In this document: positions 12,182 to 46,703 of the stretch, one piece after another
Layout: each line of letters starts with the position of its first letter
Position numbering within the stretch: the stretch's first letter is position 1
Source: an uncultured Candidatus Saccharibacteria bacterium
Lineage (GTDB): Bacteria > Patescibacteriota > Minisyncoccia > Phycocordibacterales > Phycocordibacteraceae
Assembly (NCBI GenBank): GCA_964634595.1
Contig: CAZWKU010000001.1
Location: 3,688 to 67,687, forward strand
DNA length: 64,000 bases
Direction: 5' to 3'
Made by a program: the position numbers and the translations under genes
Notes under the pieces: generated by a model
The model's input: the letters and a program-made list of their open reading frames with translations, nothing else
The model's database searches: none
What the model was told of the DNA's origin: nothing

Positions 12182-12190
12182 AGAAGGAAA

Positions 12191-12436
12191 TTAGATAGAC
12201 ACTCGAGAATAGAATGTCTGGGTGTAGTTTTCTGCTCCGGGCTCGACGCGCTGAATAAGGAATGTACCGAGCTCGTTATCTTTCTGCGCCCCCTCGTATG
12301 CCTCAATCTCTGAATCGTATGAGCCGATGACTTGCTGATTTTTTATCACCACAAATTTCCCTTCGTATTTCGCAACGAGTTCTTTTTGATGTGTGGTGTA
12401 GTATTCGAACTCCTTTGTGAGGGGGTCAGAAGCCAT
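12191..12436 (-). CDS. small partner protein of the aspartic-protease module (copy 1), hypothetical
   Basis: 81 aa, 10 nt upstream of and co-oriented with the protease. Homologous to 45809-46012 (KFVVIKNQQVIGSYD...TFLIQRVEPGAENY vs KWVALSKDNKKVIAYD...TFMKVPASDVY). Confidence 0.5.
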   Translation of the reverse strand: MASDPLTKEFEYYTTHQKELVAKYEGKFVVIKNQQVIGSYDSEIEAYEGAQKDNELGTFLIQRVEPGAENYTQTFYSRVSI

Positions 12437-12522
12437 ATACAGGTAACTATATCATAGTGGGTATTAGAGAACCACACGCGCCATAGTCGGGCTGTATACT
12501 GTCGTTATGCGATATTTTCTCT

Positions 12523-13480
12523 ATGCGCGCAAAAGCGCGACAAGGGCATTTCCCCGGCACTGCGCCATTTGGGTATTTGAATAATCCAGCGACTAAAACT
12601 ATCGTGGTTGATCGCAAAAAAGCTCCTATCGTTAAAGCCGCCTTCGAGCTCTACTCTAAAAACGATTCGACCTTAGACGACATCTCTCAATTTCTTTTTA
12701 ACGGCGGCGTCAAAAGCTATGGCGGCTTTGCTCTCCATAAAAACCGCATCAAGTTCGTTCTCGCCAATCCATTTTATTATGGGCAGTTTTTGTATGGTGG
12801 TGAATTGTATGAAGGAAAGCATTTGCCACTCATCACCAAGGCTTTGTTCGATAAAGTGCAAAAGGTGATGCTTGAGCGAAGCCATCCGCAAGTCTTTAAA
12901 GTACAACCTCAAGCATTTTGCGGCCTCATGTTTTGTGGAGAGTGCGGTTTTATGATTACCGCCGAGAAACAAAAAGGGCATGTGTACTATCGCTGTACCA
13001 AAAAAGCGGCGCTTCGCTGTTCACAACGCTATACCCGTGAAGAACAACTCGCCGCCGATTTTTCCGACCTCATTAGTATGTTTGTCCTGTCCGAGAAATG
13101 GGCACGAGATTTTGAGCATCGTATGAAAATTGATAGTCGCGAGTCCGGTCGGACGACTGCCGAGGCAGTCGCAAGGTTCAGGAGTGAGATAGTGGAGATA
13201 GGCCAGAAGCTCGATCGTCTTATGGATCTCTATATTTCGCAGGATATTGAGCGCGACTTGTATTTGGCAAAACGTCGCGCGCTTATGTCCGACAAGCGGA
13301 CGAAGGAGGAGCAAATCTTGAGTTTGGAGAAGAACAGCTCTGCATGGCTCGAACCGATGTCCAGGTGGATAAATGAGGCAGAAAATCTAGCCCAAATACA
13401 AAATGCCCCCTCTCTCCCCGCCAAAAAATCCGCCCTTCAAAAAATCTTCGGCTCGAACCTGAAACTCCAAAACCAAAAAG
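12523..13480 (+). pseudogene. large serine recombinase remnant with the N-terminal resolvase catalytic domain missing
   Basis: Begins inside the alpha-E linker (RAKARQGHFPGTAPFGY), then the recombinase domain, a zinc ribbon (CGECG...YYRC...C) and a coiled coil. Only 86 bp lie upstream before the divergent gene, so there is no room for a catalytic domain. The listed ORF reads on through the repeat and tRNA by chance. Confidence 0.85.
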
Positions 13481-13560
13481 TCTCTGGCACGGCGCATCCA
13501 CTCTACGCGGCGGTAGCCGCCGCGCGGGAAAATCCCGACCATCTCGATTCTGTATCTGTC
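13478..13560. repeat. right arm of long inverted repeat, abutting the 3' end of tRNA-Leu(CAA)
   Basis: 95% identical (79/83) to the reverse complement of 11391-11473. Contains the hairpins CGCGGCGG-tag-CCGCCGCG and CGGGA-aaa-TCCCG. Confidence 0.85.
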
Positions 13561-13561
13561 G

Positions 13562-13645
13562 TGGTGCCGGGGGAGAGACTTGAACTCTCAAGACTTGCGT
13601 CGGTGGGTTTTGAATCCACTGCGTTTACCATTTCGCCACCCCGGC
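13562..13645 (-). tRNA. tRNA-Leu (anticodon CAA), class II
   Basis: Minus-strand sequence GCCGGGGTGGCGAAATGGTAAACGCAGTGGATTCAAAACCCAC...GAGAGTTCAAGTCTCTCCCCCGGCACCA. Anticodon loop UUCAAAA, long variable arm, T-arm GAGAG/TTCAAGT/CTCTC. Confidence 0.8.
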
Positions 13646-13732
13646 AATATGCATATCCTACGCCAAAAACGGCTTTTTGAGAATTGTGTGAGCCGTGCTA
13701 CCTTGCACCCAGATCGAACAAGGAGAACTGTT

Positions 13733-14458
13733 GTGCTCACAAGAGAAAAAGTGATTCTTGCCCTTGACCACCCGACCCTAGACGAAGCACTTGCTTGTGC
13801 GAGGCTGTGCGCTAACTATGTGTACGGCTTTAAGCTTGAGCGCCTTCTGCTGTGTCGAGAGGGCCCGCGCGAAGCGATCCGAGCAGTAAAAGAAATTGGT
13901 GGGCACGTTGTGTTTGCGGACGCAAAAATACACACTATCCCGGACACTGCTGCGGCCATGGTCGTCAAGCTTGCAGGGTACGGTGCGGACATAATCAGCG
14001 CCCACGCCTCAGGTGGCGAGGCAATGCTTACAGCCTGCGTAAGCGCGTATGCGTCTATACCCCTCACGAAAACTGGTGGCATTGTGCCTATCACGCTATT
14101 GACCTCGATAGGGGCAGATGAATGCTACCGCATCTACCTGAGAGATAGGCCGAGAAACGTGGTCTTGCAATTCGCACAGCTGGCTGATCAAGTAGGGGCA
14201 TATGGCGTAGTTTGTTCCGGAGAAGAACTACTTGATCTTAAGGACAGATTCTTGGGTCAAAAACGGCTTGTTACCGGATTACGCTCACCAGGAGAACCTT
14301 CTCGTGATCAAATCCGTGTCGCAACCCCAGCACAGGCACTGACAAAAGGTGCTGACCTATTAATCATCGGGCGACAAATCACCACAAAAGGAGATCCGAG
14401 GTCTGCAATGACCGCACTCAACGACCAGCTCGAGCAAGCTCTTTCTACGCCCGGGTAG
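13733..14458 (+). CDS. pyrF: orotidine 5'-phosphate decarboxylase
   Basis: Contains ILALD and FADAKIHTIPDT (DxKxxDIPxT signature). AGGAGA RBS sits 6 nt before GTG 13733. The longer listed ORF starts at 13580, inside the tRNA. Confidence 0.8.
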   Translation: MLTREKVILALDHPTLDEALACARLCANYVYGFKLERLLLCREGPREAIRAVKEIGGHVVFADAKIHTIPDTAAAMVVKLAGYGADIISAHASGGEAMLTACVSAYASIPLTKTGGIVPITLLTSIGADECYRIYLRDRPRNVVLQFAQLADQVGAYGVVCSGEELLDLKDRFLGQKRLVTGLRSPGEPSRDQIRVATPAQALTKGADLLIIGRQITTKGDPRSAMTALNDQLEQALSTPG

Positions 14459-14597
14459 CACAGCGATATCGTAAATTCGCAATGCTTTTTACGACCCCTC
14501 CGGCATCTGACCAAAGATGCATGAGGGGTTTTCTCTTTCTCCCCTGCCATGGTACGCTCTGCGCGGACAATCGTATCTTTTCTAAGGGAGATGACAC

Positions 14598-15323
14598 ATG
14601 TACACAGATCCTAACTGGGAAGAAAAATTCAAACGAATAGGGGCTTTTTGGCGGCACTCTGGGGATCCTTGCAGGCCGTATGCCCTGCTCACGAACAGCC
14701 TCATAACCGACAGCTTCTTTAACGCAGATCGTGTGTTTTCTAATCCGCAAGTGACCGAGCAGGCGATCGGTCATCTTATACACCACCCCACCTATCGTCA
14801 CATCCTCGAAGCGACACTCATGAAGCAGGCGCCGCAACCCGTGCGCGGGACCACAATGAGTGATCCCATACCGTCATATCAAGAGAATGGCCCGCTTCGC
14901 CCAACACGAATCATCGGCATTGCCTACGGCGGGATTATCCCTGCGTATTCAGCGGCACATCACGCCGGTGCCGCGTGCGGCTATGCTACGAAAAGGCCAG
15001 ACGACACTCTCTCACTTGGCCGGTGCGAGATTGCCGAGCGCGACAGCATTGTCATTATCGAAGACACTATCTCGACTGGGGGCACTGTCCGCAAGCTACG
15101 CGTGGCTATAGAGCAAGGGTATCCAAACACGCGTATCGTTAAGTGCGTGCTCACGCTGTGCAATCGCTCAGGGTCAACTAACTTTGACGACTTCGAAATC
15201 GTGGCGCTCTTCTCTCCACTGTACCGTACCTGGAAACGCGGGAAAAACCCGTTCACCAAAGATGGGCAGGAGCATGTGGAGCCGGTGCATCCAAAGCCAC
15301 ACTGGGATGAATTTGTGAACTAG
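14598..15323 (+). CDS. type I phosphoribosyltransferase, probably orotate PRTase (PyrE-like)
   Basis: PRPP-binding motif VIIEDTISTGGTV. Lies adjacent to pyrF. AAGGGAGA RBS. Confidence 0.55.
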   Translation: MYTDPNWEEKFKRIGAFWRHSGDPCRPYALLTNSLITDSFFNADRVFSNPQVTEQAIGHLIHHPTYRHILEATLMKQAPQPVRGTTMSDPIPSYQENGPLRPTRIIGIAYGGIIPAYSAAHHAGAACGYATKRPDDTLSLGRCEIAERDSIVIIEDTISTGGTVRKLRVAIEQGYPNTRIVKCVLTLCNRSGSTNFDDFEIVALFSPLYRTWKRGKNPFTKDGQEHVEPVHPKPHWDEFVN

Positions 15324-24829: not shown

Positions 24830-24901
24830 GGCCTGGTGGTGAAGTGGTAACACTGGAGTCTGCAAAACTCCCATGCGCGGGTTCAATTCCCGCCCAGGCC
24901 T
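24830..24901 (+). tRNA. tRNA-Cys (anticodon GCA)
   Basis: GGCCTGG acceptor, anticodon stem GGAGT/ACTCC with loop CUGCAAA, T-arm GCGGG/TTCAATT/CCCGC. Confidence 0.85.
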
Positions 24902-24995
24902 CAAGCACGCAAGGTATGCTCTGCGGGATTTGAAAGCCGCAGCGCGACGGCGCGAGGCGGGGCCGCGCAAATTTCTAGCAAGAAATTATGTGTGG

Positions 24996-25014
24996 CCAAT
25001 TCCCGCCCAGGCCT
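24996..25014 (+). repeat. 19-bp direct repeat of the tRNA-Cys 3' end (att-like duplication)
   Basis: caattcccgcccaggcctc occurs at 24885-24903 (T-arm 3' half plus acceptor) and again at 24996-25014. Confidence 0.7.
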
Positions 25015-25040
25015 CTCTTGGCGTGCTATACTTGCGTGCA

Positions 25041-25310
25041 ATGATTTCAGATACCGACATCACTAAGCTTAAAAAAGTCTTTGCGACCAAGGGCGAACTT
25101 GCCGCTGTTAAGGACGAGCTGGGAGATGTGAAAATAGAGCTCGGCGAGGTGCATGACAAGGTGGACATCATTATGAATAAGATTGATGCTCTTGCTGGTT
25201 CTATCCAAGAATTGCGCATTGAAAATACGGCAGGCTCGGTAACCTTAGCCCGCCACACTCGCCAAATTGAAGCTCTTTCAAAAGGCACGGGTGTTAAAAT
25301 TCCTCAGTAA
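25041..25310 (+). CDS. small coiled-coil protein, hypothetical
   Basis: 90 aa from MISDTDITKLKK. The longer listed ORF (24873) begins inside tRNA-Cys, so it is trimmed. Confidence 0.4.
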   Translation: MISDTDITKLKKVFATKGELAAVKDELGDVKIELGEVHDKVDIIMNKIDALAGSIQELRIENTAGSVTLARHTRQIEALSKGTGVKIPQ

Positions 25311-25313
25311 AAT

Positions 25314-25405
25314 GCCAGGGTGATGGAATGGTAGACATAGAGGACTTAAAATCCTCCGAGGTCCTTAAAAGCCTCATGTGAGTTCGAGTCTCACCCCTGG
25401 TACCA
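25314..25405 (+). tRNA. tRNA-Leu (anticodon TAA), class II, CCA encoded
   Basis: GCCAGGG acceptor, anticodon stem GAGGA/TCCTC with loop CUUAAAA, long variable arm, T-arm GTGAG/TTCGAGT/CTCAC, ACCA end. Confidence 0.8.
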
Positions 25406-25414
25406 CACCAATTT

Positions 25415-25639
25415 ATGTTTTATGTCTATCTGTTAAAAAGCTTACGGGACGGTAATGCCTACATCGGCTCAACAGATAACTTACGGCGCCGATTAGCCGA
25501 GCATCAAAAAGGTCTAGTTGTCTCAACAAAACCGCGCAGGCCATTCTTTAAGAATCTGAAAGTAAAGTCGGACGTTGTCGGTAGTTTTTTGAAAGACCGC
25601 TCAAACTGCGGGGCGCACGAATACTGCATCGCTATTTAA
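25415..25639 (+). CDS. GIY-YIG nuclease domain protein (stand-alone)
   Basis: YVYLLKS...GNAYIGSTDNLRRRLAEH matches the GIY-YIG core. 74 aa. Confidence 0.6.
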   Translation: MFYVYLLKSLRDGNAYIGSTDNLRRRLAEHQKGLVVSTKPRRPFFKNLKVKSDVVGSFLKDRSNCGAHEYCIAI

Positions 25640-26130
25640 GACCTACCATGAATTCCCCGATAGTATTAAACGGACCAATTTCTCTTCCCTCTTCTACTTC
25701 GCGTAGCGCAGTTTGAAGACCATGAGGTAGTTTTTTGGTACTTTTTACGCGCGGCATAACGCTCTGTCGCATTTGTGACTTTAGTGTGCGCACTTCCCGT
25801 TCAAGGGCAACAAGTCACTGTACGATCGCTGTATTACTCATGGGAATAATATACCATATGATGGAAAATATGGATTCTATGCGCCACTTCGTCTAAACAA
25901 CAGCTTCTTCCCATCCTTCTTTTTCGCGGGGGGTATGCCTGAAATGCATTTGGAGCGGCTGGGCGAGGGATTTTGTGTAAAAAATTAGCTGAAAACAGCC
26001 AATAAATATGGCCTATTTGAGAGACCGCCGCTAGCTTGACTTTTAGGCTCGGCCATGCTACAGTTGCAGACAAGGTCTGACATCGGGTTAGATCATGGCC
26101 CTAGCGAGCCAACTCACAGGAGAAATCGCG

Positions 26131-26523
26131 ATGAAAAAGATCAGTCTGTTCTTTGATAGTTATGTTCGTGAGCAAATGGATGCATCTCAATCGTTCGGGG
26201 TTGAAAATCCCGGCCTTTTGAAGGCTATAACATTCCCAAGCGAACTCATTCGAATCGTTCTTCAAGGCGGTTTGAGTGATGATTTCGCAAGGAAATATTG
26301 TGAAAATGAGTGGGAAGTATTCGGCTTTGCACAACCGAGATTTATGAGGATTCAGAAAGCTGTGCTTGAAGCATATCGCATTGAGAGTACGTTATTTCTC
26401 CTTGCAAAGCCGAGTGTATGTATTGAGATGAGGCTTTACCGCAAGGGAGAAAAGAAACCTTTCAATGGATTTGATTTCTACTTGAATCTTAAAAATGGCG
26501 AGTTGATTACTTCTGTAACATAG
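26131..26523 (+). CDS. hypothetical protein (orphan gene A with duplicated leader)
   Basis: AGGAG RBS 9 nt before ATG 26131. The longest ORF (26095) starts inside the duplicated leader. Confidence 0.45.
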   Translation: MKKISLFFDSYVREQMDASQSFGVENPGLLKAITFPSELIRIVLQGGLSDDFARKYCENEWEVFGFAQPRFMRIQKAVLEAYRIESTLFLLAKPSVCIEMRLYRKGEKKPFNGFDFYLNLKNGELITSVT

Positions 26524-26532
26524 CTCACGGAC

Positions 26533-26597
26533 GCCCGAATGTAGATACATTCGGGCTCCCATCAAAGATTTCGATACATCGAAGCTTTTGATGGGAG
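26533..26597 (+). terminator. two consecutive stem-loops downstream of gene A
   Basis: GCCCGAATGTA-gat-ACATTCGGGC, then CTCCCATCAAAG...CTTTTGATGGGAG. Confidence 0.35.
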
Positions 26598-26670
26598 CAA
26601 TCCCACGAATTGGCATTCTGCCGTTCGCCGTGGCCCTAGCGAGCCAACCTGCAATGAGGAGGAAATCGCG

Positions 26671-26913
26671 ATGACGATGGAATATATGGGACTGGTCTGG
26701 TACGTCAGCGAGATGGGTATGATGGTAGACCAGTTCACCGGCACCATCCGTGAATCGGAGAAAGAGGCTTTGGCTGATGCCGAGGCACTCAAATCCAGTC
26801 TTCTCGCAGAATGGTCCCGGTGTGGAGTAACCGACGGTCTATCCGTCAACTCCATATCTGTTGAATCAGTAAAAAGAGAAAAGCCTATAGGTGAAGATAA
26901 CGAGACGGACTAA
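26671..26913 (+). CDS. hypothetical acidic protein (orphan gene B with duplicated leader)
   Basis: 80 aa. GAGGAGG RBS. The preceding 35 nt are near-identical to the leader of gene A. Confidence 0.45.
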   Translation: MTMEYMGLVWYVSEMGMMVDQFTGTIRESEKEALADAEALKSSLLAEWSRCGVTDGLSVNSISVESVKREKPIGEDNETD

Positions 26914-26932
26914 TAACCCTGCTCGCAATTTA

Positions 26933-26970
26933 GCCGGCACTTGGAGAAATCCTTGTGCCGGTTTTGTTTT
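26933..26970 (+). terminator. rho-independent terminator
   Basis: Stem GCCGGCAC, 14-nt loop, stem GTGCCGGT, then TTTTGTTTT. Confidence 0.6.
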
Positions 26971-27000
26971 GGGGTATCAGGTTCGAACCAAATACCTACA

Positions 27001-28239
27001 CTAGAACTGATCTGTCGATTGTGGAGGATTTGATGGGGGCTGCGGCGGAGCAGGAGGAGTAGGCTGTGATGGAGCAAAAGTCATCTTCGGGATTTTTGGT
27101 TTCAGCATAAGCCCGAAGAGCGTGATTAGTACGAGAGCGGCGAAGCCCATGCCAGCCCAAGGTAGCCAGGGATACATTTCTGTAAGACGACTTTCTCCCG
27201 GATCGCACACGTCACCAATGCCATCGCCATCAGTATCTGTCTGATTTCGATTCGGGTCTTCCGGACAGTTGTCGCGGTCGTTTATGAGGCCATCGCGATC
27301 AAAGTCGTCGCAGGCGTCTCCCCTGCCATTTGTATCTACATCTCTCTGGTCATCATTTGGTACAGAAACACAGTTATCAAGAGTATCTGGGATGCTGTCA
27401 GTGTCGGTGTCGGCGGGTTTAAAAGCCGGATTTTCGACCAGACGAGCTGATTCGAGTCGCAAGATATCGACTGTGCCAGCAAGATTGCCCGACTCCCCTA
27501 CGGGTGGGCGGACGTATCGGTCGGGATCGAGGTACAGACGGTAGCTCTCTTCTGGTTTGGCCAAGAAACGCACTGCGCTCGCGCTCGCGACCGTCGCGTT
27601 TTCCTGACGTAGCTTTATTTCTGTGATGCGCAATGGTTGTCCGTAGGTAAGGCTAAACGTCCACGTCTTTGAAGTAGTCTTTGGGAAGAGGATGTCCGCA
27701 CTCGTGGGGCGCGTCGCCGCCAACACTATCACTCCGCCGTCTTTGCGAATGGTAACGGACGTCGGGAGTGCGACATTTGCGTCGAGAAGAAGGGTGAGGG
27801 ACGAGCTCGTCACTGGGCTCACGCCCGTCAGCACTATTTCTACCTTACCCTGCCCTGTTTCTGGAAGCGAGAACTCGCGGAAAGTGAGCACATTATTGTC
27901 GAGTAGGGCCGAGAGGCTTGATGCTGCACTGCCTACTTGCGATACGGTTTGTGCAGAAAGCGCAATCTCGTTTTTAATACGTTCAGAAATGAACAGCGTC
28001 GGCTCAAATCCCCCGGTCGCAACATCGATGAGCGCGACATCAGTACGATTTAGTTCTATCCCCGTAAGCGGTACCTCAACCACGGTAGGGACTTTAATTG
28101 GAAACGTGCCAAGTTCAACGTAACTCTGAAAGACCGACGCAACATCCGTAGGTGGTGGCGTTGGGGGAGTAGCCGCTGCAAATGATGGAGCGGCAAAAAG
28201 AAGGCTCGCAAAAACACCGGTTACAAGGAAATTACGCAT
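27001..28239 (-). CDS. secreted/anchored protein with thrombospondin type-3 (calcium-binding) repeats and a C-terminal TM anchor
   Basis: Signal peptide [26 protein letters not shown]3 repeats [49 protein letters not shown]-terminal hydrophobic helix and a Pro-rich tail. Trimmed from 28365 to avoid overlap with the upstream gene. Confidence 0.6.
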
Positions 28240-29977
28240 GGTCTCTTGTTCTTTCTTCAATAATACGGGGCTCGCTTCGCTTACCCAAAAACGCCGTACC
28301 AATAAGGAGCGCGCCGATGAGGAAGAAGGTGATGATACGCCCTGTGAGCTCCATCTTCCAAACATCGACCATTAACAGCCGTGCGACTACTATCCCCAAG
28401 AGGATACCTCCGTAGAGGAGGAGGCCTCGCTTTTCTTGCGTGCGACCCATGAAATAGGTAGTAATACCTATCACGGTATACACCACAAGTGCAATCATGG
28501 TAGCCAGGTCGTCGTTGGTGAGACCAGCATGGAGCGAGAGCCAGAGAAGTATGTATGCGTAGGCTGAACCGGCAACGAGAAGCAGAGCATTACCCGATCG
28601 GTCTTCAGAGTTTCCTGACGACTGTTTTACAAAGTAGCTCCCCAGAACAAGGAGCGCGACCGCAAGCACCGCGAGAACGAAAAATTCATCGTGAACAACC
28701 CCCTGCCTCCATGCAGGCGACGCAATGCTCTCAAACGACAGCACACCAGGGATAATAAAAAGAGCGCACAGTCGCCGTGCGATTCTTGTATCTTGGAGAA
28801 GCGCGCTCGCGATAAGTGGCAGCACCGCACTCTCGAGCGTTAAGGCAATGATCAGTGCCGACCCCTGAAGCTCGAACGCAGTGGCTGCCCCCAAGAACAC
28901 CACGCCAATACCCGAATACACAAAGAATGGCTCACGACGGCCCGTGGCCTGACAAAGCACAAACGCTCCTACCACAAATATAAGCATCCATGCAGCAACA
29001 CTAAGACTCTGCCACTCGGGTGATACGCCGTAGAGGATCCACGTAAGTAGAAAAGCGCCGTTCCCTGCTGCCGTAAGGAGGTCGGCGCTGTAAGAATTGT
29101 CCTTGAGCTTCATCAGGCTCACGGTGTTGGTGACAAAGAAGATTGCGGCAAAGGCGTAGGCAAACAGGAGCACCGTATCGCGATCAGCGCTGTTAAAGAG
29201 GTACGGGAGAGAGTAAAACGCGACCAGGATAAGCGCTGCAAAAGTAATATCTTTCATCCCGCTTACTGCAACTACCCACACCGCACCGAGCACCACTACC
29301 ATGAGGTACGCGAAGAGCAAAACAGTGTCAGACGTTCGGTCATCAACAAGAAAGGGAGCGATACCTGCGAGCACTAAGCTCGCAAGTGCAAGCGCACGAC
29401 TCTTGTAGAGAGCCGCGGCGGCGGCAACAAAGACGGTACTCAAGAACATGACACCGAGCGCCGATGCTGGTGTAAAAAAATCATACAGCGTGCGAGCGGC
29501 AAACAGAGTAAGGAGGATAGTGGTTGAACCCACCACCAAGAAGATTCCACCCTGGTGAATGCGCGTGCGAATACGCCACCACCCAAGGCCGATAAAGAGC
29601 ACACCCCCCGCAATGCCAAGGAGGATGCGCCCTTGCTCTCCTATCCAATTGTTTAAAAACGCATACGTGGTCAACCAGCCAAAACCGATAAGCAAGAGGA
29701 GCGCGCCAAGTTTCATCAGCCAATCCTCAGCAAGCCAAGCAAAAAAGGCGTTTGGCGCTGGTGCCGTCGTTTCAGTATCTACTACGCTTTCTTGAAGTCC
29801 GCTCTGTCTGGGAGCATGGGTCTCGTCAAGAGAAGTGGCGCTGGCAGTAACTGGAGCAACACTCGCCTGCCCTGGCCTACTCTGCAGGTTTTTAAGTTGT
29901 CGCTCAAGCGCATTTACCCTGCTGTGCACATGCACAAGTACCGCCACAAAGATGACTAAAAGCAAGGTGAAGATCAT
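28232..29977 (-). CDS. polytopic membrane protein, DUF2339-like
   Basis: 581 aa with an N-terminal helix/coiled coil followed by more than 12 TM helices. Confidence 0.5.
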
Positions 29978-30017
29978 ATCCCCTATTATGCCACAAAGTG
30001 CCGTGTATAATCCTCAC

Positions 30018-30851
30018 ATGCAAGAACCAGTGTGTTTTATTGGGGGTATGATAGTGCCCCTGCAGGAGGCGCGAGTGGGCGTTTACGATCTAGGGCTTTT
30101 GCGCGCCTTTGGCATTTATGAGGGCATTACCGCCATTAAGGGCGAGCCTTTTCATTTTCATGATCACTTCGCGCGCTTTGAACGCTCTGCAAAAGCGCTT
30201 GGGCTCACCCTCCCCTTTACTGAAGACGAGGCACTGCACGCAACACGCGAGATAGTAAAAAAGAATGCGGGAGAGGCACGCGCAACGGTACGGATGATAC
30301 TCACCGGGGGCGCGGCCGAGAGCGGCATTGTGCATGTGCCCGGGCGCGAGACTTTTTATATTTTGGCTGAAGTTGCAGAGCAATTCTCAAAGAAAATATA
30401 TGAGGAGGGCGGTTCACTCATTACGACCGAGCACCAACGCGCTCTGCCCGAATACAAGACCATTGATTACATCACCGCCGTGATGCTCCAACCACAACGT
30501 AAAGCGGCGGGTGCGGTCGATATGTTGTATGTCTCAAAGAGTGAAGTGCTTGAGTGCGGCGGGAGCAATATCTTTATTGTGAAAGGGAGTGAGCTCATAA
30601 CACCAAGTGAGGGCGTCTTGCACGGGATAACCCGCAAGGTCGTACTCGACCTTGCGGGTAACTCGTATCCAGTGCATGAGCGTCACGTCACTCTCGATGA
30701 ACTGCTCGGTGCTGATGAAGTTTTTATGACCGGCTCGTTTAAAGATATTGTGCCTATAGTGAAAATAGGTGATGCGCAAATTAGCACAGGCACCATAGGC
30801 CCCATCACCCGCGACCTTATGGCGCAGTTTAAGAAATACGCAGGTTTGTGA
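30018..30851 (+). CDS. class IV aminotransferase (branched-chain/D-amino-acid aminotransferase family)
   Basis: EVFMTGSFKDIVPIV and fold-type IV PLP pattern. Extended -10 TGTATAAT at 30003-30010 ends 7 nt upstream of ATG 30018 (possibly leaderless). Alternative start 29988. Confidence 0.7.
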   Translation: MQEPVCFIGGMIVPLQEARVGVYDLGLLRAFGIYEGITAIKGEPFHFHDHFARFERSAKALGLTLPFTEDEALHATREIVKKNAGEARATVRMILTGGAAESGIVHVPGRETFYILAEVAEQFSKKIYEEGGSLITTEHQRALPEYKTIDYITAVMLQPQRKAAGAVDMLYVSKSEVLECGGSNIFIVKGSELITPSEGVLHGITRKVVLDLAGNSYPVHERHVTLDELLGADEVFMTGSFKDIVPIVKIGDAQISTGTIGPITRDLMAQFKKYAGL

Positions 30852-30865
30852 TATAAAAAGCATAC

Positions 30866-30938
30866 GCGCCTATAGCTCAGTTGGTAGAGCAGCTCCCTCT
30901 TAAGGAGACGGTCCCTGGTTCGAGCCCAGGTAGGCGCA
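30866..30938 (+). tRNA. tRNA-Lys (anticodon CTT)
   Basis: GCGCCTA acceptor, D-arm TAGCTCAGTTGGTAGAGC, anticodon loop CUCUUAA, T-arm CCTGG/TTCGAGC/CCAGG. Confidence 0.75.
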
Positions 30939-31007
30939 CTCGCGAGGCGAGGATGTTTTGATGGTGACGGTAACATTAACGAATCAATCCACCCCGAAAG
31001 CAACCAC

Positions 31008-31250
31008 GTGCAGCTAAAAGTGCGTTTCTCCTCAGCCAGTCATGATTTCTTAGTATGGTTATTGAAACAAATTAAATGTTCATACGGTGTCAGCGGTGGT
31101 TCAATATATACTCACAAACGCAAATCGGTGGGTACCCTTAGCTTCGGGAAAGAGGATTCTATAAAGATCCTCCGTGCAATGTATCGAACTAATGACGAGC
31201 ATTTTCTGAAAAGAAAGTATAGAATAACTAGACGCTATCTGGGCGGGTAG
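31008..31250 (+). pseudogene. LAGLIDADG-type homing endonuclease fragment (single half-domain)
   Basis: 80 aa. HDFLVWLLKQIKCSYGVSGGSIY...TLSFGKEDSIKILRAMY resembles one LAGLIDADG half with the G-G-S-I-Y block. Too short for an active enzyme. The stop lies inside the next tRNA. Confidence 0.4.
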
Positions 31251-31322
31251 CCGAATTGGTATAGGCGCATGGCTTAGGACCATGTCCCGCAAGGGGTGGA
31301 GGTTCAAGTCCTCTCCCGCCCA
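31241..31322 (+). tRNA. tRNA-Leu (anticodon TAG), class II
   Basis: GGGCGGG acceptor, anticodon stem CATGG/CCATG with loop CUUAGGA, long variable arm, T-arm GGAGG/TTCAAGT/CCTCT. Confidence 0.85.
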
Positions 31323-31352
31323 CAAAAGCGAGCAAATACGGCATTTTTTACG

Positions 31353-33517: not shown

Positions 33518-33557
33518 GAACCGCATCGCGCTACGCGCGATGCGGTTCTTTTTTTTA
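33518..33557 (+). terminator. rho-independent terminator
   Basis: Stem GAACCGCATCGCG, loop ctacg, stem CGCGATGCGGTTC, then TTTTTTTTT. Confidence 0.75.
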
Positions 33558-33560
33558 TCT

Positions 33561-33839
33561 TTAAAAAAGCCCGGTGATTCTTTGCACTGACGGCACATCA
33601 TTGAAGGTGCTGGTCACGAGATCGAGTATCCCGTATACCCCGAAAATAATACCGAGCCCGATAAGCCCCCACATAATAGCCTCACGCCCCTCCTTACGCG
33701 CCGTCCCGTCCTCTGCATGCATTATAAATTTAACCACTCCCCAGATAAAGAGTACGAAGGCAACCGCCGCAAGGAGAAGGAGTACCGGGTTAACGATCTC
33801 AGTGACGACCTTTTTCAAAAAGGCGTCTAGGGCAGACAT
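33561..33839 (-). CDS. small two-TM pilin-like membrane protein (array member 6)
   Basis: 92 aa with the conserved block NPVLLLLAAVAFVLFIWG...KEGREAIMWGLIGLGIIFGVYGIL. Confidence 0.5.
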   Translation of the reverse strand: MSALDAFLKKVVTEIVNPVLLLLAAVAFVLFIWGVVKFIMHAEDGTARKEGREAIMWGLIGLGIIFGVYGILDLVTSTFNDVPSVQRITGLF

Positions 33840-33841
33840 GG

Positions 33842-34207
33842 TTAGGTGCCAATGCCGCCAGTTACCGGATACTCTAACGGGCTTTCATCAAGTGGTACCG
33901 TATTCTTGATGATGTTCACGAGCCCCCAGACCGACACCATGACGAAAAATCCTATCAAGCCCCAGAGCATAAGATTACGACCCTTCTCTTTAACCTCATC
34001 ATTTGCGTAGCCCACGATAAAGGTCTGAAAGGCGCCCCACACAAAGACGATAAACGCGATAGCGAAGAGAACAGGTACCACTACATCATTGATGGTGTTG
34101 ATGATGAGACTACCGACCTCGCCGAGGTTGCTAACGACCGTTTGTGCCGAGGCAACAAGCGGGAAGGTCAAGAGGAGTCCGGCACCGATGGTAAGGGCTT
34201 TTTTCAT
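33842..34207 (-). CDS. small two-TM pilin-like membrane protein (array member 5)
   Basis: 121 aa. Signal peptide, then VVPVLFAIAFIVFVWG...EKGRNLMLWGLIGFFVMVSVWGLV. Confidence 0.5.
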   Translation of the reverse strand: MKKALTIGAGLLLTFPLVASAQTVVSNLGEVGSLIINTINDVVVPVLFAIAFIVFVWGAFQTFIVGYANDEVKEKGRNLMLWGLIGFFVMVSVWGLVNIIKNTVPLDESPLEYPVTGGIGT

Positions 34208-34277
34208 AATATGTATAAGTAATAACTAGAGTAATGATAGTCTGCCGCTAGATAAAGGCAATGAGCTCGTGTGGATA

Positions 34278-34814
34278 TCAGAGCTTCGGGTACGGCAAGG
34301 TGGAGTCAGATCTGGGGCCAACGCCTACATTCAAGAGCTCAACCCCCACATTTACTAGCCCCCAAAGTGAAAAGATAATAACGAAACCAATGACCCCATA
34401 GAGGACGAACTGCTTCCCCTCTTCGTGGTTTTTGTCGCTATCTCCCCCCTTGATAAAGTAGTTGTAGACTCCCCACAAAAATACAATAAAGGCAACAGCC
34501 GTGAGTAAGGGGACAAGGATATCGTTAATAAAGAACTTGATGTCGTTTGCGAAGCCTGCAAGGCGGGAGGTATTCAGCACGCCACCTCCCCCGCCACCAC
34601 CTGGCGCCTGACCTGTGCCTGTACTAGTCCCACGCACACAGGTGCCAGCCTTGCTCCCCTGCGGAAATTGAGTGTCGCAAGCCTCACCTGCAAGTGCCGA
34701 GCAGTCAGAAGCAGTATTGCACCCGGCTCCAACCGTAGCACTAGCAGTAGCGGGCAGCGCACTGACCCCTATCGAGCATGCAAAGAGAAGTGCAAAGAGC
34801 AAGAGTTTGCTCAT
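34278..34814 (-). CDS. pilin-like membrane protein with a Cys/Gly-rich N-terminal extracellular region (array member 4)
   Basis: Start MSKLLLF (trimmed from 34937). CNTASDCSALAGEACD...GGGGGGG, then LVPLLTAVAFIVFLWG...EEGKQFVLYGVIGFVIIFSLWGLV. Confidence 0.5.
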   Translation of the reverse strand: MSKLLLFALLFACSIGVSALPATASATVGAGCNTASDCSALAGEACDTQFPQGSKAGTCVRGTSTGTGQAPGGGGGGGVLNTSRLAGFANDIKFFINDILVPLLTAVAFIVFLWGVYNYFIKGGDSDKNHEEGKQFVLYGVIGFVIIFSLWGLVNVGVELLNVGVGPRSDSTLPYPKL

Positions 34815-34822
34815 AGTAGCTA

Positions 34823-35272
34823 TCAGATAGAGGCTGGGTACGGCGGACGCCCAATGCCCGCGAGGCCGAAGGTGTTTGCCACCACGAACACCAAACCCCA
34901 CACCGAAAGCATCACCACAAACCCGACAATCCCCCAAAGTATTAGCTGGTGAGCATTTGCCACCTCCTCTTCACCTCGCTTAAAGATGTAAGCGCGAAAG
35001 ACCCCCCACAAAAAGACAATGAAGGCTACCGCAAAGACGAGCGGCACTAAAACAAAATTGATCAACCAGATAAATTGACCGGCTACAACGCAGATCGTAT
35101 TAGTGCCGCATCCAAGCGTAAACGAGCCGATGCCTCCAACGCCAGAGCCCGACCCGATGCCAAAAAACCAACCGCCAGAGCCTACCCCGCCGACCACACT
35201 GGTCTGTGCCGCGGCAAGAACGGGAGTAAGAAAACTAAGTGTTGAGATTGTGATGCGGGTAAATATGTTCAT
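34823..35272 (-). CDS. pilin-like membrane protein with a Gly-rich N-terminal region (array member 3)
   Basis: 149 aa. Signal peptide, Gly-rich stretch, then LVPLVFAVAFIVFLWG...HQLILWGIVGFVVMLSVWGLV. Confidence 0.5.
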   Translation of the reverse strand: MNIFTRITISTLSFLTPVLAAAQTSVVGGVGSGGWFFGIGSGSGVGGIGSFTLGCGTNTICVVAGQFIWLINFVLVPLVFAVAFIVFLWGVFRAYIFKRGEEEVANAHQLILWGIVGFVVMLSVWGLVFVVANTFGLAGIGRPPYPASI

Positions 35273-35279
35273 GGCTCTA

Positions 35280-35534
35280 TTATGCAGGAGCCAGCCCCAG
35301 CGTGTCTAGGAGGATATACACTAACCCCCACACCGAGAACATAACAACCATCCCAAGAATACCCCAGAGCACAAACTCCCTCCCGTGGCGTCGGCCTTCG
35401 TCAGTGCCTGCTTCAATAAAAAAGAACCGTACTATCCCATACACTATGTATGCGAAGGCAAGCGCAATAATCGCTGGTATGACAAGCGTGTTTATAGCAC
35501 CCACGAGGCTCTCAATAAAAGTACGAAAGGTCAT
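35280..35534 (-). CDS. small two-TM pilin-like membrane protein (array member 2, start trimmed)
   Basis: VIPAIIALAFAYIVYG...RHGREFVLWGILGMVVMFSVWGLV. The longest ORF (to 35624) would overlap member 1. Confidence 0.45.
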   Translation of the reverse strand: MTFRTFIESLVGAINTLVIPAIIALAFAYIVYGIVRFFFIEAGTDEGRRHGREFVLWGILGMVVMFSVWGLVYILLDTLGLAPA

Positions 35535-35962
35535 GAGCCAACACTCAAAGCCTGCACGGTGGCCTCTATCCCAAGAGCAATGGCTTTCGAGCCAAGCAAG
35601 ACAAGTGCCCCGATAAGAGTCCACAGGAGTGCCTGTCGGGCCTCGGCTATTTTGTTCGGCTCATGAGAGTGGAGGACAAAGAGGTAGCCTATATATACCA
35701 CCATAAATACAATCGCTACCGAGCCAATGCGTATCACGAAATCAAGGATCTTGTTGAGGAGGTTCAAGATACAGGTCTGTACTGGAGTGCCCGTAGGGCA
35801 ACCACCCTGCAAAGGGTTTATGAGTTGTGTGCTTGGCGGTGGCATAAGATTGCCCGGCAATGAGCTTGGTGGTGGGACGAGCTGTGCAAACGCAGGGGTA
35901 ACGATAAAGAAAGAGAGAAGGACGACCGCTGACACTGTTTGTAGTATTTGCAAGCGTTTCAT
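35531..35962 (-). CDS. pilin-like membrane protein (array member 1, most divergent)
   Basis: 143 aa. Signal peptide, Pro-rich segment, then VAIVFMVVYIGYLFV...ARQALLWTLIGALVLLG. Confidence 0.4.
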   Translation of the reverse strand: MKRLQILQTVSAVVLLSFFIVTPAFAQLVPPPSSLPGNLMPPPSTQLINPLQGGCPTGTPVQTCILNLLNKILDFVIRIGSVAIVFMVVYIGYLFVLHSHEPNKIAEARQALLWTLIGALVLLGSKAIALGIEATVQALSVGS

Positions 35963-37263
35963 CGCGCAAAGAGGGCCGTGAGCGCACTCTCGGCAAGTGC
36001 CACTGCCCTAGTGATAGAGAGCCTGCCAGAGTTCACGTCGTTAATCATAGCGCTAAAGACGCTGTCGGTCTCTGCGGGCCCTGGGGACAGCCACCCGCGC
36101 GTGAAGAGCGCCGAATCGTAGGCAATAGCACTTACCGCATCAGAGGGGCGGTGCGCGAGAGCTCCGCGCACCGCAGGCGCGCGGAGCGTGTGGAGCGCCA
36201 GCAGTTGGTTATTCCCCACTTGCGTCAGCGCAACAGCTACTTGAAAGCCCCCTTCGTGGTTCTTTGCGCCCTTGGGGATCATAAACGCATAGAGGTGACC
36301 GTAGGTGGCCTTGGTTCCCCTTTCACTATATTGCGGCAATACGGCAACATCGAAATCAAGATTAGGGTTAGCCTCGCGCAGGTGACCGACCTCTGAGGCA
36401 TAGCCCAGATAAAATGCGAGATCTCCCTGCAAAAAGCGCTCTTGGGACCCTTCAAGCCCGGCATTCCACGAGTAGAGACTCTTCGAGGGATCAGCAAATT
36501 GGGTATAGAAGCGTACCACTGCCTCAGCCGGCGGGATACCGCTTTCAGCACGAGTGCCAAGATCAGCTCTCGGCTGACCAGTACTCACAATAACCGAGAG
36601 AGGCGCGCCCAACTGCATGAACAATGAGGAGAGAATCCCTCGAGCGTTCTGCACATTTGCATAGGTCCCAAACGCAACGAGACTCTTGTCGATGCCACCC
36701 GAAGGCGTGCGAGTCACTACGGCGTTTATATGACCTGAAAGCTCATCCCAGGTGAGGGGCGGTCGAACGATACCCGCCGAAGAGAGCATGGTGCGGTTGT
36801 AAAAAAGAACAAGCGGGTCGATGAGAATAGGGAGACCGAGCGACCCTGAGCCGTCGGGGAGTAAAAATATCTCACCTCCTGCGGTAAAAGCATCTTTAAA
36901 AGTCCGCTCGCTGACCCTTTCAACAGAAATCGAACGTACGTACGGCGCAAGGGCAGAGAGGTGCTCGTGAGAGGCAAGTACGAGATCAGGTGGCGTCCCC
37001 TGCGCAATAGCCGCGACTAACTCTTGGGGTAGTTGATTTGGCTCAAAATCTACATAGGTGACATTACCAAACGTCTGATCTGCTCTCCGCAAATTCTCGA
37101 GTGCCGCGTGCACCCCCTTTTCAGGTATTGAACCCCAAATCAGAACCGAGCCTACCCCCGCTGTACCCCCCTCAGGCCTGTAAAACGAAAAGACGGCCAC
37201 ACCAATGATTCCCGCGAGTGCGCATACTCCAAGCACTATCCCCTGAAACAGCGTTATCTTCAT
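35959..37263 (-). CDS. membrane-anchored extracellular solute-binding-protein-like protein
   Basis: 434 aa with an N-terminal TM helix and a periplasmic-binding-protein-like alpha/beta pattern. Overlaps both neighbours by 4 nt. Confidence 0.4.
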   Translation of the reverse strand: MKITLFQGIVLGVCALAGIIGVAVFSFYRPEGGTAGVGSVLIWGSIPEKGVHAALENLRRADQTFGNVTYVDFEPNQLPQELVAAIAQGTPPDLVLASHEHLSALAPYVRSISVERVSERTFKDAFTAGGEIFLLPDGSGSLGLPILIDPLVLFYNRTMLSSAGIVRPPLTWDELSGHINAVVTRTPSGGIDKSLVAFGTYANVQNARGILSSLFMQLGAPLSVIVSTGQPRADLGTRAESGIPPAEAVVRFYTQFADPSKSLYSWNAGLEGSQERFLQGDLAFYLGYASEVGHLREANPNLDFDVAVLPQYSERGTKATYGHLYAFMIPKGAKNHEGGFQVAVALTQVGNNQLLALHTLRAPAVRGALAHRPSDAVSAIAYDSALFTRGWLSPGPAETDSVFSAMINDVNSGRLSITRAVALAESALTALFAR

Positions 37264-37796
37264 ATGGTTGGTGTAGTAAATACTAGTGCATAGTGGTGCG
37301 GCCCGCCACGAAAATTCTTAACCTTCACAAATCCCGCGCCAATAAAAAGCTCCTCGGCCTCGCGCTCTCCCACCACCGCATCTGCCTTGGGGCCCATGCC
37401 GCCATAGGAGCCCGCCCAATCAACCACAAGAAGCTTTGCTCCCGGCTTTAAGATTCGCCGAATCTCGGCAATGAGCCCTGCGCGGTGCTCAACCTGAAAA
37501 AGGGCATTGGCGAGGATAGCTGCATCCATAGAATGGTCGCGTAACCCTGTCCCACCAGCCTTTTCAATATCGCCCCACACCGGCTCGATAGTGCCTCGAT
37601 GGTGCTTGTGCACACTCTCCTTAATATGCCTGAGCATGTCTTGTCGTACCTCGACCGCGTAGACCTTGCCTTCAGGCCCAACGACCGCAGCGGCCGCATG
37701 CGCATAGTGCCCAGCCCCAGAGCCAAGATCAGCGACCTTCATCCCGTCGCTAAGCGCCATCTGGAGAACATTCTCTCGAGGTTGTGAGAAATGCAT
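37260..37796 (-). CDS. class I SAM-dependent methyltransferase
   Basis: Motif I VADLGSGAGHYAHAAA, motif post-I LLVVDW. First gene of the operon that contains the pilin-like array. Confidence 0.7.
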   Translation of the reverse strand: MHFSQPRENVLQMALSDGMKVADLGSGAGHYAHAAAAVVGPEGKVYAVEVRQDMLRHIKESVHKHHRGTIEPVWGDIEKAGGTGLRDHSMDAAILANALFQVEHRAGLIAEIRRILKPGAKLLVVDWAGSYGGMGPKADAVVGEREAEELFIGAGFVKVKNFRGGPHHYALVFTTPTI

Positions 37797-37828
37797 TACT
37801 ATAAAAATAGCATCTTTAGCAGAGAGTT

Positions 37829-38557
37829 TTGTATACTACACACATGCCGATCTATTGTGAGACACCCGCGCTGGTTGCCAGCTTTGCCGTCGAGCCTATC
37901 AACACATGGAGCAACCTCTTTATCATTGCCGTCGGGCTCCTTGCGATAACCATAGTTGCACGGCGCCCAGGGCGGCCGCATGGGCGGTCGCTCTGGATAC
38001 TTGCTATCCTCCTCACCATAACGGGCGTAGGGTCATTTCTCTGGCACGGGTGGCGAGAGCCAGGCTTCCTTATCCTCGACGCGGTGCCTGGGGCACTCTT
38101 CCTTTTTATCGCGGCATATCTGTGGATGCGGCGTTTTTATTCGCGAACCGTTGCCCTTGTAGGCGTCATCGCCTTTGCGCTTCTTGAGGCACTCTCCGCC
38201 GCCTACGGCGCTGACGCACTCTCACACCAGTACGCCGTCGTGAGCATGGCACCCGTGCTCGCGCTCACCAGCGCTTGGCTTATCGCGCGAACCTACGGTG
38301 AGTCGTTGCGCGCCGCGGCACTTGGCGGTGGCGCACTCGCACTCGCACTTGCCGCAATTTATTTTCGCTCTATTGACCTTTCGGTGTGCGAGACCTTCGC
38401 GATAGGGACGCATTTCATCTGGCACCTACTCCTCTCGCTCTCTGCCCTTTTCACTATTTTGAGCCTTATAGTCATTGACTACTCACGCTACTTTTCAGCA
38501 CGTTCAAAAATCCGCATGGATGTCCACCACCAACCCCCACGACGCAACTCGCGCTGA
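37829..38557 (+). CDS. ceramidase-family (CREST-type) integral membrane hydrolase-like protein
   Basis: Seven predicted TM helices. N-terminal EPINTWSNL matches the alkaline ceramidase signature. Confidence 0.45.
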   Translation: MYTTHMPIYCETPALVASFAVEPINTWSNLFIIAVGLLAITIVARRPGRPHGRSLWILAILLTITGVGSFLWHGWREPGFLILDAVPGALFLFIAAYLWMRRFYSRTVALVGVIAFALLEALSAAYGADALSHQYAVVSMAPVLALTSAWLIARTYGESLRAAALGGGALALALAAIYFRSIDLSVCETFAIGTHFIWHLLLSLSALFTILSLIVIDYSRYFSARSKIRMDVHHQPPRRNSR

Positions 38558-38637
38558 CATATCCACAGCGGTTTTCTGACCGACAGGCGTACACTTATTT
38601 GTGTGCGGACAGATGTTTGGCACGCGACAGGAGAGAT

Positions 38638-38732
38638 GGGAGGTTGGCAGAGAGGCTTAATGCACTCGTTTTCCAAACGAGCGGGTGACGATTAAAGAAA
38701 CCCCGCAGGTTCGAATCCTGTACCTCCCGCCA
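38638..38732 (+). tRNA. tRNA with a class-II (long variable arm) structure and G73, apparent anticodon UCC. Isotype unresolved.
   Basis: GGGAGGT acceptor pairs perfectly with ACCTCCC, then G, then CCA. 3-bp D-stem GCA/TGC. Anticodon stem CTCGT/ACGAG with loop UUUCCAA. 23-nt variable arm. T-arm GCAGG/TTCGAAT/CCTGT. Confidence 0.6.
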
Positions 38733-38819
38733 CTGAAACTCCTGTCACGTGCCAAGGATCCGTCTCTAAATAACTATCTCTCGCGCAGGCCACTTAGGCT
38801 AGCAAATTGCTGTGGATAG

Positions 38820-46100: not shown

Positions 46101-46703
46101 ATGCAACGCTTGCCAGGTGGATTCGTGAAAGACCTTTTCACCCTGGCACTCCTTATTGTTCTCGTAGTCTTGCCTCTGCGACTGTTTGTCATCTCTCCCT
46201 TTGTGGTTGATGGCGAATCCATGCATCCCACATTTCAACACCTTGATTACCTGATCATTGACGAGATCTCGTATCGCTTTAAAGCGCCGGTACGGGGCGA
46301 CGTCATAGTCTTTCGCTATCCACTGAACCCTTCAACTTTTTACATCAAGCGCATTATAGGCCTCCCAGGCGAGACCGTCTCGATTACTCGCGGCAAAGTG
46401 AGTGTCAAAGGCCCCACGGGCACTACTGAGACGCTTACCGAGCCGTACGTCGCGACTGAAGACGCAACCTACACTAAAATCGTCGTGCTTGGCAGCGATG
46501 AATATTTCGTCATGGGCGACAACCGCCCTAATAGCTCTGATTCGCGCCGCTGGGGTGCCCTACCGCGAGAAAATATTGTGGGTAGGGCGCTTGTCCGACT
46601 TCTCCCCGTCACCAATGCAGGATTTTCACCTGGCGCAGGGGCGCCGATATTGAGCGCGAACCTCCCCTTCCCGGGCAGTGAGGTACTGCAACCAACCCTA
46701 TGA
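46101..46703 (+). CDS. lepB: signal peptidase I
   Basis: GESMHPT (catalytic Ser) and GDNRPNSSDSR. Confidence 0.9.
   Translation: MQRLPGGFVKDLFTLALLIVLVVLPLRLFVISPFVVDGESMHPTFQHLDYLIIDEISYRFKAPVRGDVIVFRYPLNPSTFYIKRIIGLPGETVSITRGKVSVKGPTGTTETLTEPYVATEDATYTKIVVLGSDEYFVMGDNRPNSSDSRRWGALPRENIVGRALVRLLPVTNAGFSPGAGAPILSANLPFPGSEVLQPTL

Follow-up and report, generated by a model that had tools for sequence, protein, structure and literature searches.

A methyltransferase and a membrane-tethered binding protein precede six T4SS_pilin-family genes in an operon of a Kaiserbacteria-lineage genome

Patescibacteria depend on host bacteria. Tandem arrays of VirB2-like genes have been described in them by Quinonero-Coronel et al., who counted 441 of them, with 2-11 genes each, in 383 assemblies by means of the families PF04956 and PF18895, the identity within arrays averaging 25%, and a role in host-range versatility was suggested by analogy with Bartonella and Anaplasma (PMC12102498). 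In Southlakia epibionticum the cluster of its type IV secretion system (T4SS) lies beside dnaN and holds six PF18895 genes (SEML1_0014-0019), each of which scores as essential in transposon sequencing (Tn-seq) (PMC10633639), along with genes resembling VirB4, PrgI and VirB6 and genes for a lysozyme and a peptidase (PMC10633639; reviewed in PMC12857230). In this one species tested the T4SS genes score as essential by Tn-seq, and their function is described in the literature as 'completely unknown'. The window analysed here, a stretch of 64 kb of contig CAZWKU010000001.1 from an ultra-small, Kaiserbacteria-like bacterium, carries on its minus strand an operon of eight genes in which a methyltransferase (MTase) and a solute-binding protein (SBP) are followed by six pilin-like proteins, here called p1 to p6 in their order in the operon. 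The array itself is of a known kind, its six tandem PF18895 genes of low mutual identity falling under the published definition of such an array, which asks for at least two tandem PF18895 or PF04956 genes (PMC12102498). What is new is the fixed architecture of six orthogroups, the invariant head of MTase and tethered SBP, the dedicated promoter of p5 and the separation from virB4; a search of a collection of papers found no description of an operon that combines MTase, SBP and array.

With the arrays already described in Patescibacteria the locus shares tandem PF18895 genes (with some PF04956), a low identity within the array, the number of six found in the best-studied case and a monoderm, host-dependent owner. 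It differs from them in lying outside a T4SS cluster, near neither dnaA nor virB4, in the two genes at its head and in its internal promoter, and whilst the emphasis of the published interpretation is on variability and a versatile host range, the orthology by position is strict across the clade here. The arrays of Bartonella and Anaplasma are also made of tandem VirB2-like genes and are read as variants of one subunit, whereas each copy here has an orthogroup of its own. The TrbC/VirB2 pilins of diderm T4SS have in common with the pilins of this locus a signal peptide, two hydrophobic helices and a short basic loop, but the locus has no cyclisation or acetylation enzyme, no VirB5 and no outer-membrane parts. 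Mbov_0395 and MMCAP2_0565 (NF045849) are leaderless two-helix proteins of ~80 aa from a monoderm system of MPF-FATA type (mating pair formation, class FATA), but each is a single gene on a mobile element with VirB4 and VirD4, whereas the six genes here are chromosomal and without transfer genes.

The evidence that the six pilins are distinct subunits comes from related genomes. Relatives of the SBP were collected from species-representative genomes (n=157), and the best 80 of the 157 were scanned at the level of the locus with a hidden Markov model of the six core blocks and BLASTP of the neighbours. These 80 are Patescibacteria metagenome-assembled genomes with an SBP identity of 44-52%, mostly labelled Candidatus Kaiserbacteria or Paceibacterota. 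In nearly every locus with enough sequence gyrA, the MTase, the SBP and six pilins are found on one strand, and because this block recurs in essentially all 80 related loci the arrangement is far beyond chance. Exactly six pilins are present in 62 loci and seven in four, with the others ending at contig edges. Compared with the window, GyrA of the relatives has a median identity of 80.6%, the MTase (77 relatives) one of 62% and the SBP one of 48%.

In the loci with six pilins the best cross-genome match of a pilin is always the one at the same position (62 of 62 at each of the six positions), with 106-154 bits for the same position against 28-77 bits for other positions and for paralogues within the genome. 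The cores of the orthologues are 54-75% identical depending on position, which is above the 48% of the SBP, with p5 the highest at a median of 75%; to the other five pilins of the window p5 is 25-42% identical. Each position also has its own anatomy. The ectodomain of p1 orthologues ranges from 8 to 164 aa and has at least two Cys in 63% of them, p2 orthologues are 83-97 aa long and none has a leader, those of p3 are 99-178 aa and those of p4, the most variable in length, 95-466 aa, whilst p5 is held to 118-131 aa with a leader in 61 of 62 and p6 is leaderless at 86-108 aa. It is the strict positional orthology together with this position-specific anatomy that fits six ancient, non-interchangeable subunits better than a pool of variants, and the finding that all six copies are individually essential in S. 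epibionticum agrees with such non-redundancy. Where an array has seven genes, the additional one is a second p4 in three loci (L032, L058 and L062) and is p5-like in one. As a separate observation, p1 and p4 of locus L059 (11310-12635, 441 aa, and 13353-14753, 466 aa) are extended C-terminally of the core by very long stretches rich in Cys, Ser/Thr and Gly, which would be an extreme elaboration of a surface domain on the pilin core.

The family to which the six proteins belong is apparent from Pfam, with all six passing the gathering threshold of PF18895, T4SS_pilin (26.6 bits), at 27.9-37.7 bits, and with PF18895 precomputed on 120 of 120 p5 homologues among the matches listed. TrbC/VirB2 (PF04956, threshold 27.9 bits) is less easily reached; p1 of the window scores 23.5 bits and p2-p6 give no match at all, but ten of ten p1 orthologues tested match the model and three of them pass it (28.4, 30.6 and 32.0 bits). 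By sequence p1 is the member nearest to canonical VirB2. The original prediction, made from the sequence alone, had likened the six proteins to TrbC/VirB2-type or T4SS pilins, and this holds for all six through PF18895, whilst for PF04956 it fails with p1 of the window and succeeds with those three orthologues. The profile of the Mycoplasma pilin-like conjugal transfer proteins of integrative and conjugative elements (NF045849, cut-off 40 bits) is passed by p6 at 42.2 bits, the other five remaining below it at 18.1-36.3 bits, and this result for p6 fits the MPF-FATA ancestry that has been reported for the T4SS of Patescibacteria.

A hydropathy scan and alignment confirm that a two-helix block is common to all six. 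The motif first quoted for it (AFIVFLWG ... LWGLIGF ... VWGLV) is found in the fourth to eighth genes of the operon, with the third gene, p1, being divergent and TrbC-like and fitting it only loosely, and of the proposed signal peptide and two hydrophobic helices the helices are in all six, whereas a leader resembling a signal peptide is in four (p1, p3, p4 and p5) and a signal peptide is absent from p2 and p6. The loop that connects the hairpin has 2-4 Lys and Arg residues against 0-1 in the flanks, so that by the positive-inside rule the loop would be cytoplasmic and both ends outside. The same topology, with the loop in and both ends out, is shared by the VirB2 and TraA propilins. The AlphaFold2 (AF2) model of p5 has helices at residues 4-20, 28-65 and 70-103, i.e. 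a leader helix and a long helical hairpin, with a predicted local distance difference test (pLDDT) score of 86-92 in the core.

The two genes at the head of the operon were described in the original prediction as a S-adenosylmethionine (SAM) methyltransferase and an anchored solute-binding-like protein, and both descriptions are borne out, with both genes being conserved partners of the array in the relatives. The MTase scores 49-52 bits with Methyltransf_31, Methyltransf_11 and Methyltransf_25 (Pfam), above their cut-offs, its SAM motif I (DLGSGAG) is visible in the sequence, and its nearest solved relative is 3dh0, a protein of unknown function (E 3e-17). No substrate-specific subfamily (UbiE, ArsM, PCMT and others) is reached, the NCBIfam matches being far under their cut-offs (e.g. 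56.9 against 263). The SBP matches SBP_bac_8 (62.6 bits) and SBP_bac_1 (49.5 bits) in Pfam and has a transmembrane (TM) helix within residues 1-29 by hydropathy, which in the AF2 model (pLDDT 87) is a helix at 5-26 followed by a disordered tether of ~12 residues (27-39) and then a MalE-like fold. Foldseek places binding proteins for manno- or malto-oligosaccharides and for sucrose at the top (E 2e-19), and the best match to a structure at the level of sequence is 4r9f.

With the MalE-like binding proteins of ATP-binding cassette (ABC) importers, such as CpMnBP1 (4r9g) and the maltotriose-binding protein of Thermus (2gh9), the SBP shares the SBP_bac_1/8 families and the two-lobe fold, but the identity is 15-18%, the anchor is a TM helix instead of a lipid or a free periplasmic existence, there is no adjacent permease or ATPase and it is pilins that follow. 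No ABC permease or ATPase for it was found among the annotated ORFs (open reading frames) of the window, nor among the genes called in the distant loci described below. Proteins of SBP fold are tied to T4SS in the cases of PrgZ (pCF10) and ChvE (Agrobacterium), which are of different SBP families, act via a permease or a sensor kinase and are not encoded in a pilin operon, and they are a lead only.

The junctions around the head genes are tight. MTase and SBP overlap by 4 nt in 53% of the loci and SBP and p1 by 4 nt in 42%, neither junction is ever interrupted, and all the junctions of the operon but one are mostly of 20 nt or less. The junction between gyrA and the MTase spans from 1 to 3742 nt across loci, and in the window a ceramidase-like gene and a tRNA have been inserted there, upstream of the MTase, with the block itself intact. 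The module also reaches beyond the clade. At E<=1e-30 the representative library has 744 clusters of the SBP family, and five distant SBPs of 32-33% identity were sampled. Three of their contigs have MTase and SBP followed by 4, 5 or 6 PF18895 genes, the fourth stops at the SBP gene, and the fifth, a short one, continues past the SBP with two genes that have no annotation and does not extend far enough on the other side to include an upstream gene. Even in the distant arrays one can make out a p1-like gene and, in last place, a p6-like one. These arrays have in addition an extra first member that contains Cys, before the p1-like gene (L088 2446-2790, L089 2484-2930, L093 4567-4950), and with its weak PF18895 score and no match to the models of p1-p6 it looks like a seventh type of subunit. 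It is because of the unbroken junctions, the upstream element that the MTase has of its own (see below) and the persistence of the module in distant lineages that functional coupling of the MTase and the SBP to the pilins is inferred, on strong grounds.

The eight co-oriented minus-strand ORFs extend over 33561-37796, exactly where the original prediction had placed them, and the overlaps and short gaps that it described are likewise supported by the coordinates and by public gene calls (Table 1). Overlaps of 4 nt join MTase to SBP, SBP to p1 and p1 to p2, and the remaining gaps are of 7, 8, 70 and 2 nt. In public assemblies of the same organism, which reach six of the genes, the independent calls are of 178, 434, 143, 84, 149 and 178 aa. 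The short starts of p2 (35534) and p4 (34814) are preferred over a GTG at 35624 and a TTG at 34937 because the public calls agree with them and the p2 orthologues keep the MTF N-terminus. The eight genes are a real operon, probably with two promoters. Its end is likely to be the GC-rich hairpin that lies beyond p6, where, the T-run being on the + strand side, termination of the minus-strand transcript is putative.

Upstream of the MTase, the relatives have the same layout as the window (P1 in Table 1), with TGnTATTTT followed by 6-7 nt and the ATG, and this suggests an extended -10 promoter whose mRNA would be leaderless or nearly so. In the relatives (L002-L080) the motif is part of a longer element, which lies ~55 nt upstream of the ATG and is made up of GTGTTGATT, a GC-rich hairpin of 9-11 bp and then TGnTATTTT, compensatory changes being found in 5 of the 6 predicted pairs of the hairpin. 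The element may act as a terminator or insulator joined to the promoter of a leaderless mRNA, or as an attenuator. The hairpin is absent from the window (37797-37860), where only the TGnTATTTT-like part is kept. A SAM riboswitch or attenuator was considered for the hairpin and rejected, as Rfam finds just tRNAs in the window and the window is without the hairpin.

The spacer between p4 and p5 is the sole junction that is never short, being at least 64 nt in 59 loci, and it carries the second promoter (P2 in Table 1). The TATCCACA box is exact in this spacer in 53 of 62 loci, and the -35 lies 25 nt downstream of it in 41 of 49; of these 49 loci, 39 have TTGACC as the -35 and 40 have TACAAT as the -10, with a spacer of 16 nt and 26 nt to the ATG. 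Across 1.18 Mb of loci there are 57 composites of box and promoter, nearly all of them before p5, whilst four scrambled control octamers give none. The promoter of the window, also 26 nt from its -10 to the ATG of p5, is weaker than the consensus (TTGCCT and TATCAT), yet it was found by an independent consensus scan. This conserved internal promoter would drive p5 and p6. The box (CTATCCACAC) has a fixed position 25 nt upstream of the -35 in most relatives (L001-L080) and is DnaA-box-like, matching 8 of 9 positions of the DnaA-box consensus, TTATCCACA, and it is a candidate DnaA box. That TATCCACA is a general promoter element is not claimed, there being only 4 in the window against 1.2 expected with 4 of 100 shuffles reaching 4, and outside the p5 promoter it is found in assorted contexts. 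In seven relatives (L008, L010, L026, L043, L050, L053 and L066) perfect TTATCCACA boxes are also seen downstream of gyrA, where they lie within a conserved hairpin (ATATCCTTATCCACATCCGGTCG..GATAAGGATAT).

Table 1. Features of the operon, listed from its upstream to its downstream end
Feature	Coordinates	Strand	Description	Basis
P1	37804..37812	-	Extended -10-like TGCTATTTT, 7 nt upstream of the MTase ATG	Sequence read
MTase	37260..37796	-	Class I SAM-dependent methyltransferase, 178 aa, cytoplasmic, no TM helix, first gene of the operon	
SBP	35959..37263	-	N-terminally membrane-anchored, MalE-like (oligosaccharide-type) binding protein, 434 aa	
p1	35531..35962	-	Signal peptide, variable Pro/Cys ectodomain, TrbC/VirB2-like two-helix core	PF18895 32.7 bits
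p2	35280..35534	-	Leaderless, 84 aa, two-helix, conserved MTF N-terminus	PF18895 27.9 bits
p3	34823..35272	-	Signal peptide, Gly-rich ectodomain, conserved C-x5-C, two-helix core	PF18895 30.7 bits
p4	34278..34814	-	Signal peptide, variable Cys-/Gly-rich ectodomain, two-helix core	PF18895 34.0 bits
P2	34234..34277	-	Putative internal promoter: TATCCACA box 34270-34277, -35 TTGCCT 34256-34261, -10 TATCAT 34234-34239	
p5	33842..34207	-	Signal peptide joined directly to two-helix core	PF18895 37.7 bits
p6	33561..33839	-	Leaderless, 92 aa, two-helix, always the last gene of the array	PF18895 33.7 bits
Hairpin	33518..33548	n/a	14-bp, GC-rich, between convergent p6 and a + strand gene	

The best explanation of the array, which is given a probability of about 60%, is that it is a stand-alone, heteromeric pilin module of a T4SS of the Patescibacteria type (monoderm, MPF-FATA-derived). 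The hairpins would insert with the loop in the cytoplasm and the N- and C-termini outside, and the four pilins with a leader would be cut by signal peptidase I (LepB), of which there is a gene at 46101-46703. The six would then co-assemble into one heteromeric envelope structure, either a pilus-like fibre or a channel sleeve, which would be built by a VirB4 machine encoded elsewhere. Together with p6, p5 may be overproduced from its own promoter as the bulk subunit, and p5 is likely to be the major subunit because of its conserved dedicated promoter and its highest conservation. The minor or tip subunits would be p1, p3 and p4, with their fast-changing Cys- or Gly-rich ectodomains possibly setting host-surface specificity. 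At the base of the structure the tethered SBP may capture an oligosaccharide that comes from the host, as a receptor or as the first step of uptake, and the MTase may modify a part of a pilin that is exposed to the cytoplasm or a bound lipid.

A number of points weigh against this explanation. A Pfam scan of the window, covering the ORFs of at least 150 aa except overlapping or antisense ones and four at the right end, found no VirB4, VirD4, VirB6 or type IV pilus ATPase in the 64 kb, and amongst the 80 relatives, in which every ORF of 450 aa or longer lying up to 10 kb from the operon was clustered, no gene for a T4SS ATPase or channel recurs. The link to a T4SS is drawn from membership of the family and from other lineages. 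Through the core profile no solved T4SS pilin is reached in the PDB, the best match being to an unrelated protein at E 0.92, and the p5 model has no Foldseek match with E under 0.7 and no pilin amongst its first 50, in a fold search of low power since a helical hairpin is not diagnostic. According to reviews, a pilus made of these proteins has not been reported in any Patescibacterium. For the head genes, the T4SS cluster of S. epibionticum has neither SBP nor MTase (PMC10633639), and gyrA and other housekeeping neighbours are syntenic to an equal depth, at 33% SBP identity, so that synteny by itself is no proof that the MTase and the SBP work with the pilins. The capture of host glycans by the SBP and the modification of pilin or lipid by the MTase are the least secure parts of the explanation. 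Beyond the left end of the window, ~4 kb hold housekeeping genes and no T4SS or pilus-assembly genes, and short contigs at its right end have housekeeping genes only. In favour of a VirB4 machine encoded elsewhere, the published Table S1 records VirB4 in 5 of 6 sister assemblies that were matched to loci carrying the operon.

Of the other ways in which the locus might be read, the one in the original prediction, and in the analogy drawn in PMC12102498, takes the paralogues to be interchangeable versions of one pilin that supply antigenic or phase diversity, or flexibility of host range. The low identity within the array, which for p5 against the others lies near the published average of 25%, the highly variable ectodomains of p1, p3 and p4, the occasional duplication of p4 and an array size that runs from 4 to 7 across the wider lineages could all be expected of such a pool. 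However, orthology is one to one by position in 62 genomes, the SBP is less constrained than the cores of the pilins, the layout of the operon has all six transcribed together and their six counterparts in S. epibionticum are each essential. Nor is there anything in the operon on which recombination amongst paralogues could act, those of the window sharing just stretches of DNA of 34-52 nt at 60-85% identity, with no long repeats, silent cassettes, slippery tracts, switchable promoter or invertible, inverted or tandem elements, and for this clade the reading is largely refuted and must be considered very improbable. More serious, although still unlikely, is that the array is a T4SS module with which the MTase and the SBP merely share a compact syntenic neighbourhood and a transcript. 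Small genomes often mix functions within an operon, neither protein has a known role in a T4SS, the array of S. epibionticum does without such partners, and gyrA, a Lactamase_B gene and S1 upstream are as syntenic at 33% SBP identity as the head genes are. Yet the run from MTase through SBP to p1 is overlapped or nearly so and never broken, whereas insertions have repeatedly split that from gyrA to the MTase, there is a conserved element upstream of the MTase itself, no ABC partner of the SBP was found in the window, and 3 of the 5 distant SBPs sampled have pilin genes immediately downstream, the contigs of the other two ending at or just past the SBP.

It is also conceivable, albeit rather improbable, that the six hairpins, with their 12 helices, and the SBP make up an envelope device of their own without VirB4, such as a binding-protein-dependent channel or a scaffold. 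The operon never adjoins virB4 in the clade, an SBP that lacks a permease must have some partner in the membrane, two of the pilins have no signal peptide, and there is no match in sequence or fold to solved pilus subunits. What speaks for a T4SS instead is that PF18895 genes are near virB4 in 1135 of 1948 Patescibacteria assemblies (PMC12102498) and lie inside the essential T4SS cluster of S. epibionticum, that p1 orthologues reach the TrbC/VirB2 model, and that the operon has no energy-coupling protein. A role of the Patescibacteria T4SS pilus as an 'uptake conduit' has been speculated upon (PMC12857230), and the hairpins and the SBP could be a nutrient-capture device of this sort, in which a heteromeric pilus-like conduit with the SBP at its base would take up host glycans without a classical ABC permease and the MTase would tune the loop of a pilin or a pilin-bound lipid. 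This bolder proposal is a doubtful one.

The surroundings of the operon have some features of their own. The ceramidase-like gene upstream of the MTase is at 37829-38557, and between it and gyrA lies the tRNA (38638-38732, + strand), which is 95 nt long with a long variable arm (class II shape), an anticodon UCC (Gly) by ARAGORN and an Rfam tRNA score of 52.9 bits. Both are absent at this site in 21 relatives and look like a lineage-specific insertion, and TATCCACA boxes flank the intergenic region (38560-38567, +; 38811-38818, -). Some 4-9 kb downstream of the array in the relatives (L007-L071), and at 24830-31323 in the window, lies a cluster of tRNAs, Leu(tag)/Lys(ctt)/Leu(taa)/Cys(gca), whose synteny holds in all relatives, with individual tRNAs (Lys, Leu-tag and Cys) changing strand between genomes, which suggests frequent small inversions. 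At 27001-29977 (- strand) a gene for a DUF2339 membrane protein of 581 aa overlaps one for a protein of 454 aa with thrombospondin type 3 repeats, and the two may be a surface or adhesion pair near the operon. Further away, between parB and pyrF, the window has a gene for a retroviral-type aspartyl protease (11645-12181) and a serine-recombinase fragment without a resolvase domain (12523-13680) that runs into tRNA-Leu(caa) at 13562-13645, and 11645-13680 may be the remnant of an integrated element; a full-length serine recombinase is present just past the left end of the window (L083 12834-14378).

For the biology of Patescibacteria, the fixed set of distinct subunits seen here across a large clade means that such arrays are better modelled as heteromeric assemblies, in which some subunits are major and others minor, and p5 is predicted to be the first gene to tag or image. 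The SBP and the MTase, invariably coupled to the array, provide two soluble, expressible proteins whose ligand and substrate could be worked out in vitro, and with them an indirect route to the function of the apparatus in uncultured organisms. If the operon were indeed to serve in nutrient capture, it would be the first genetic handle on the uptake conduit that has been speculated for the T4SS pilus.

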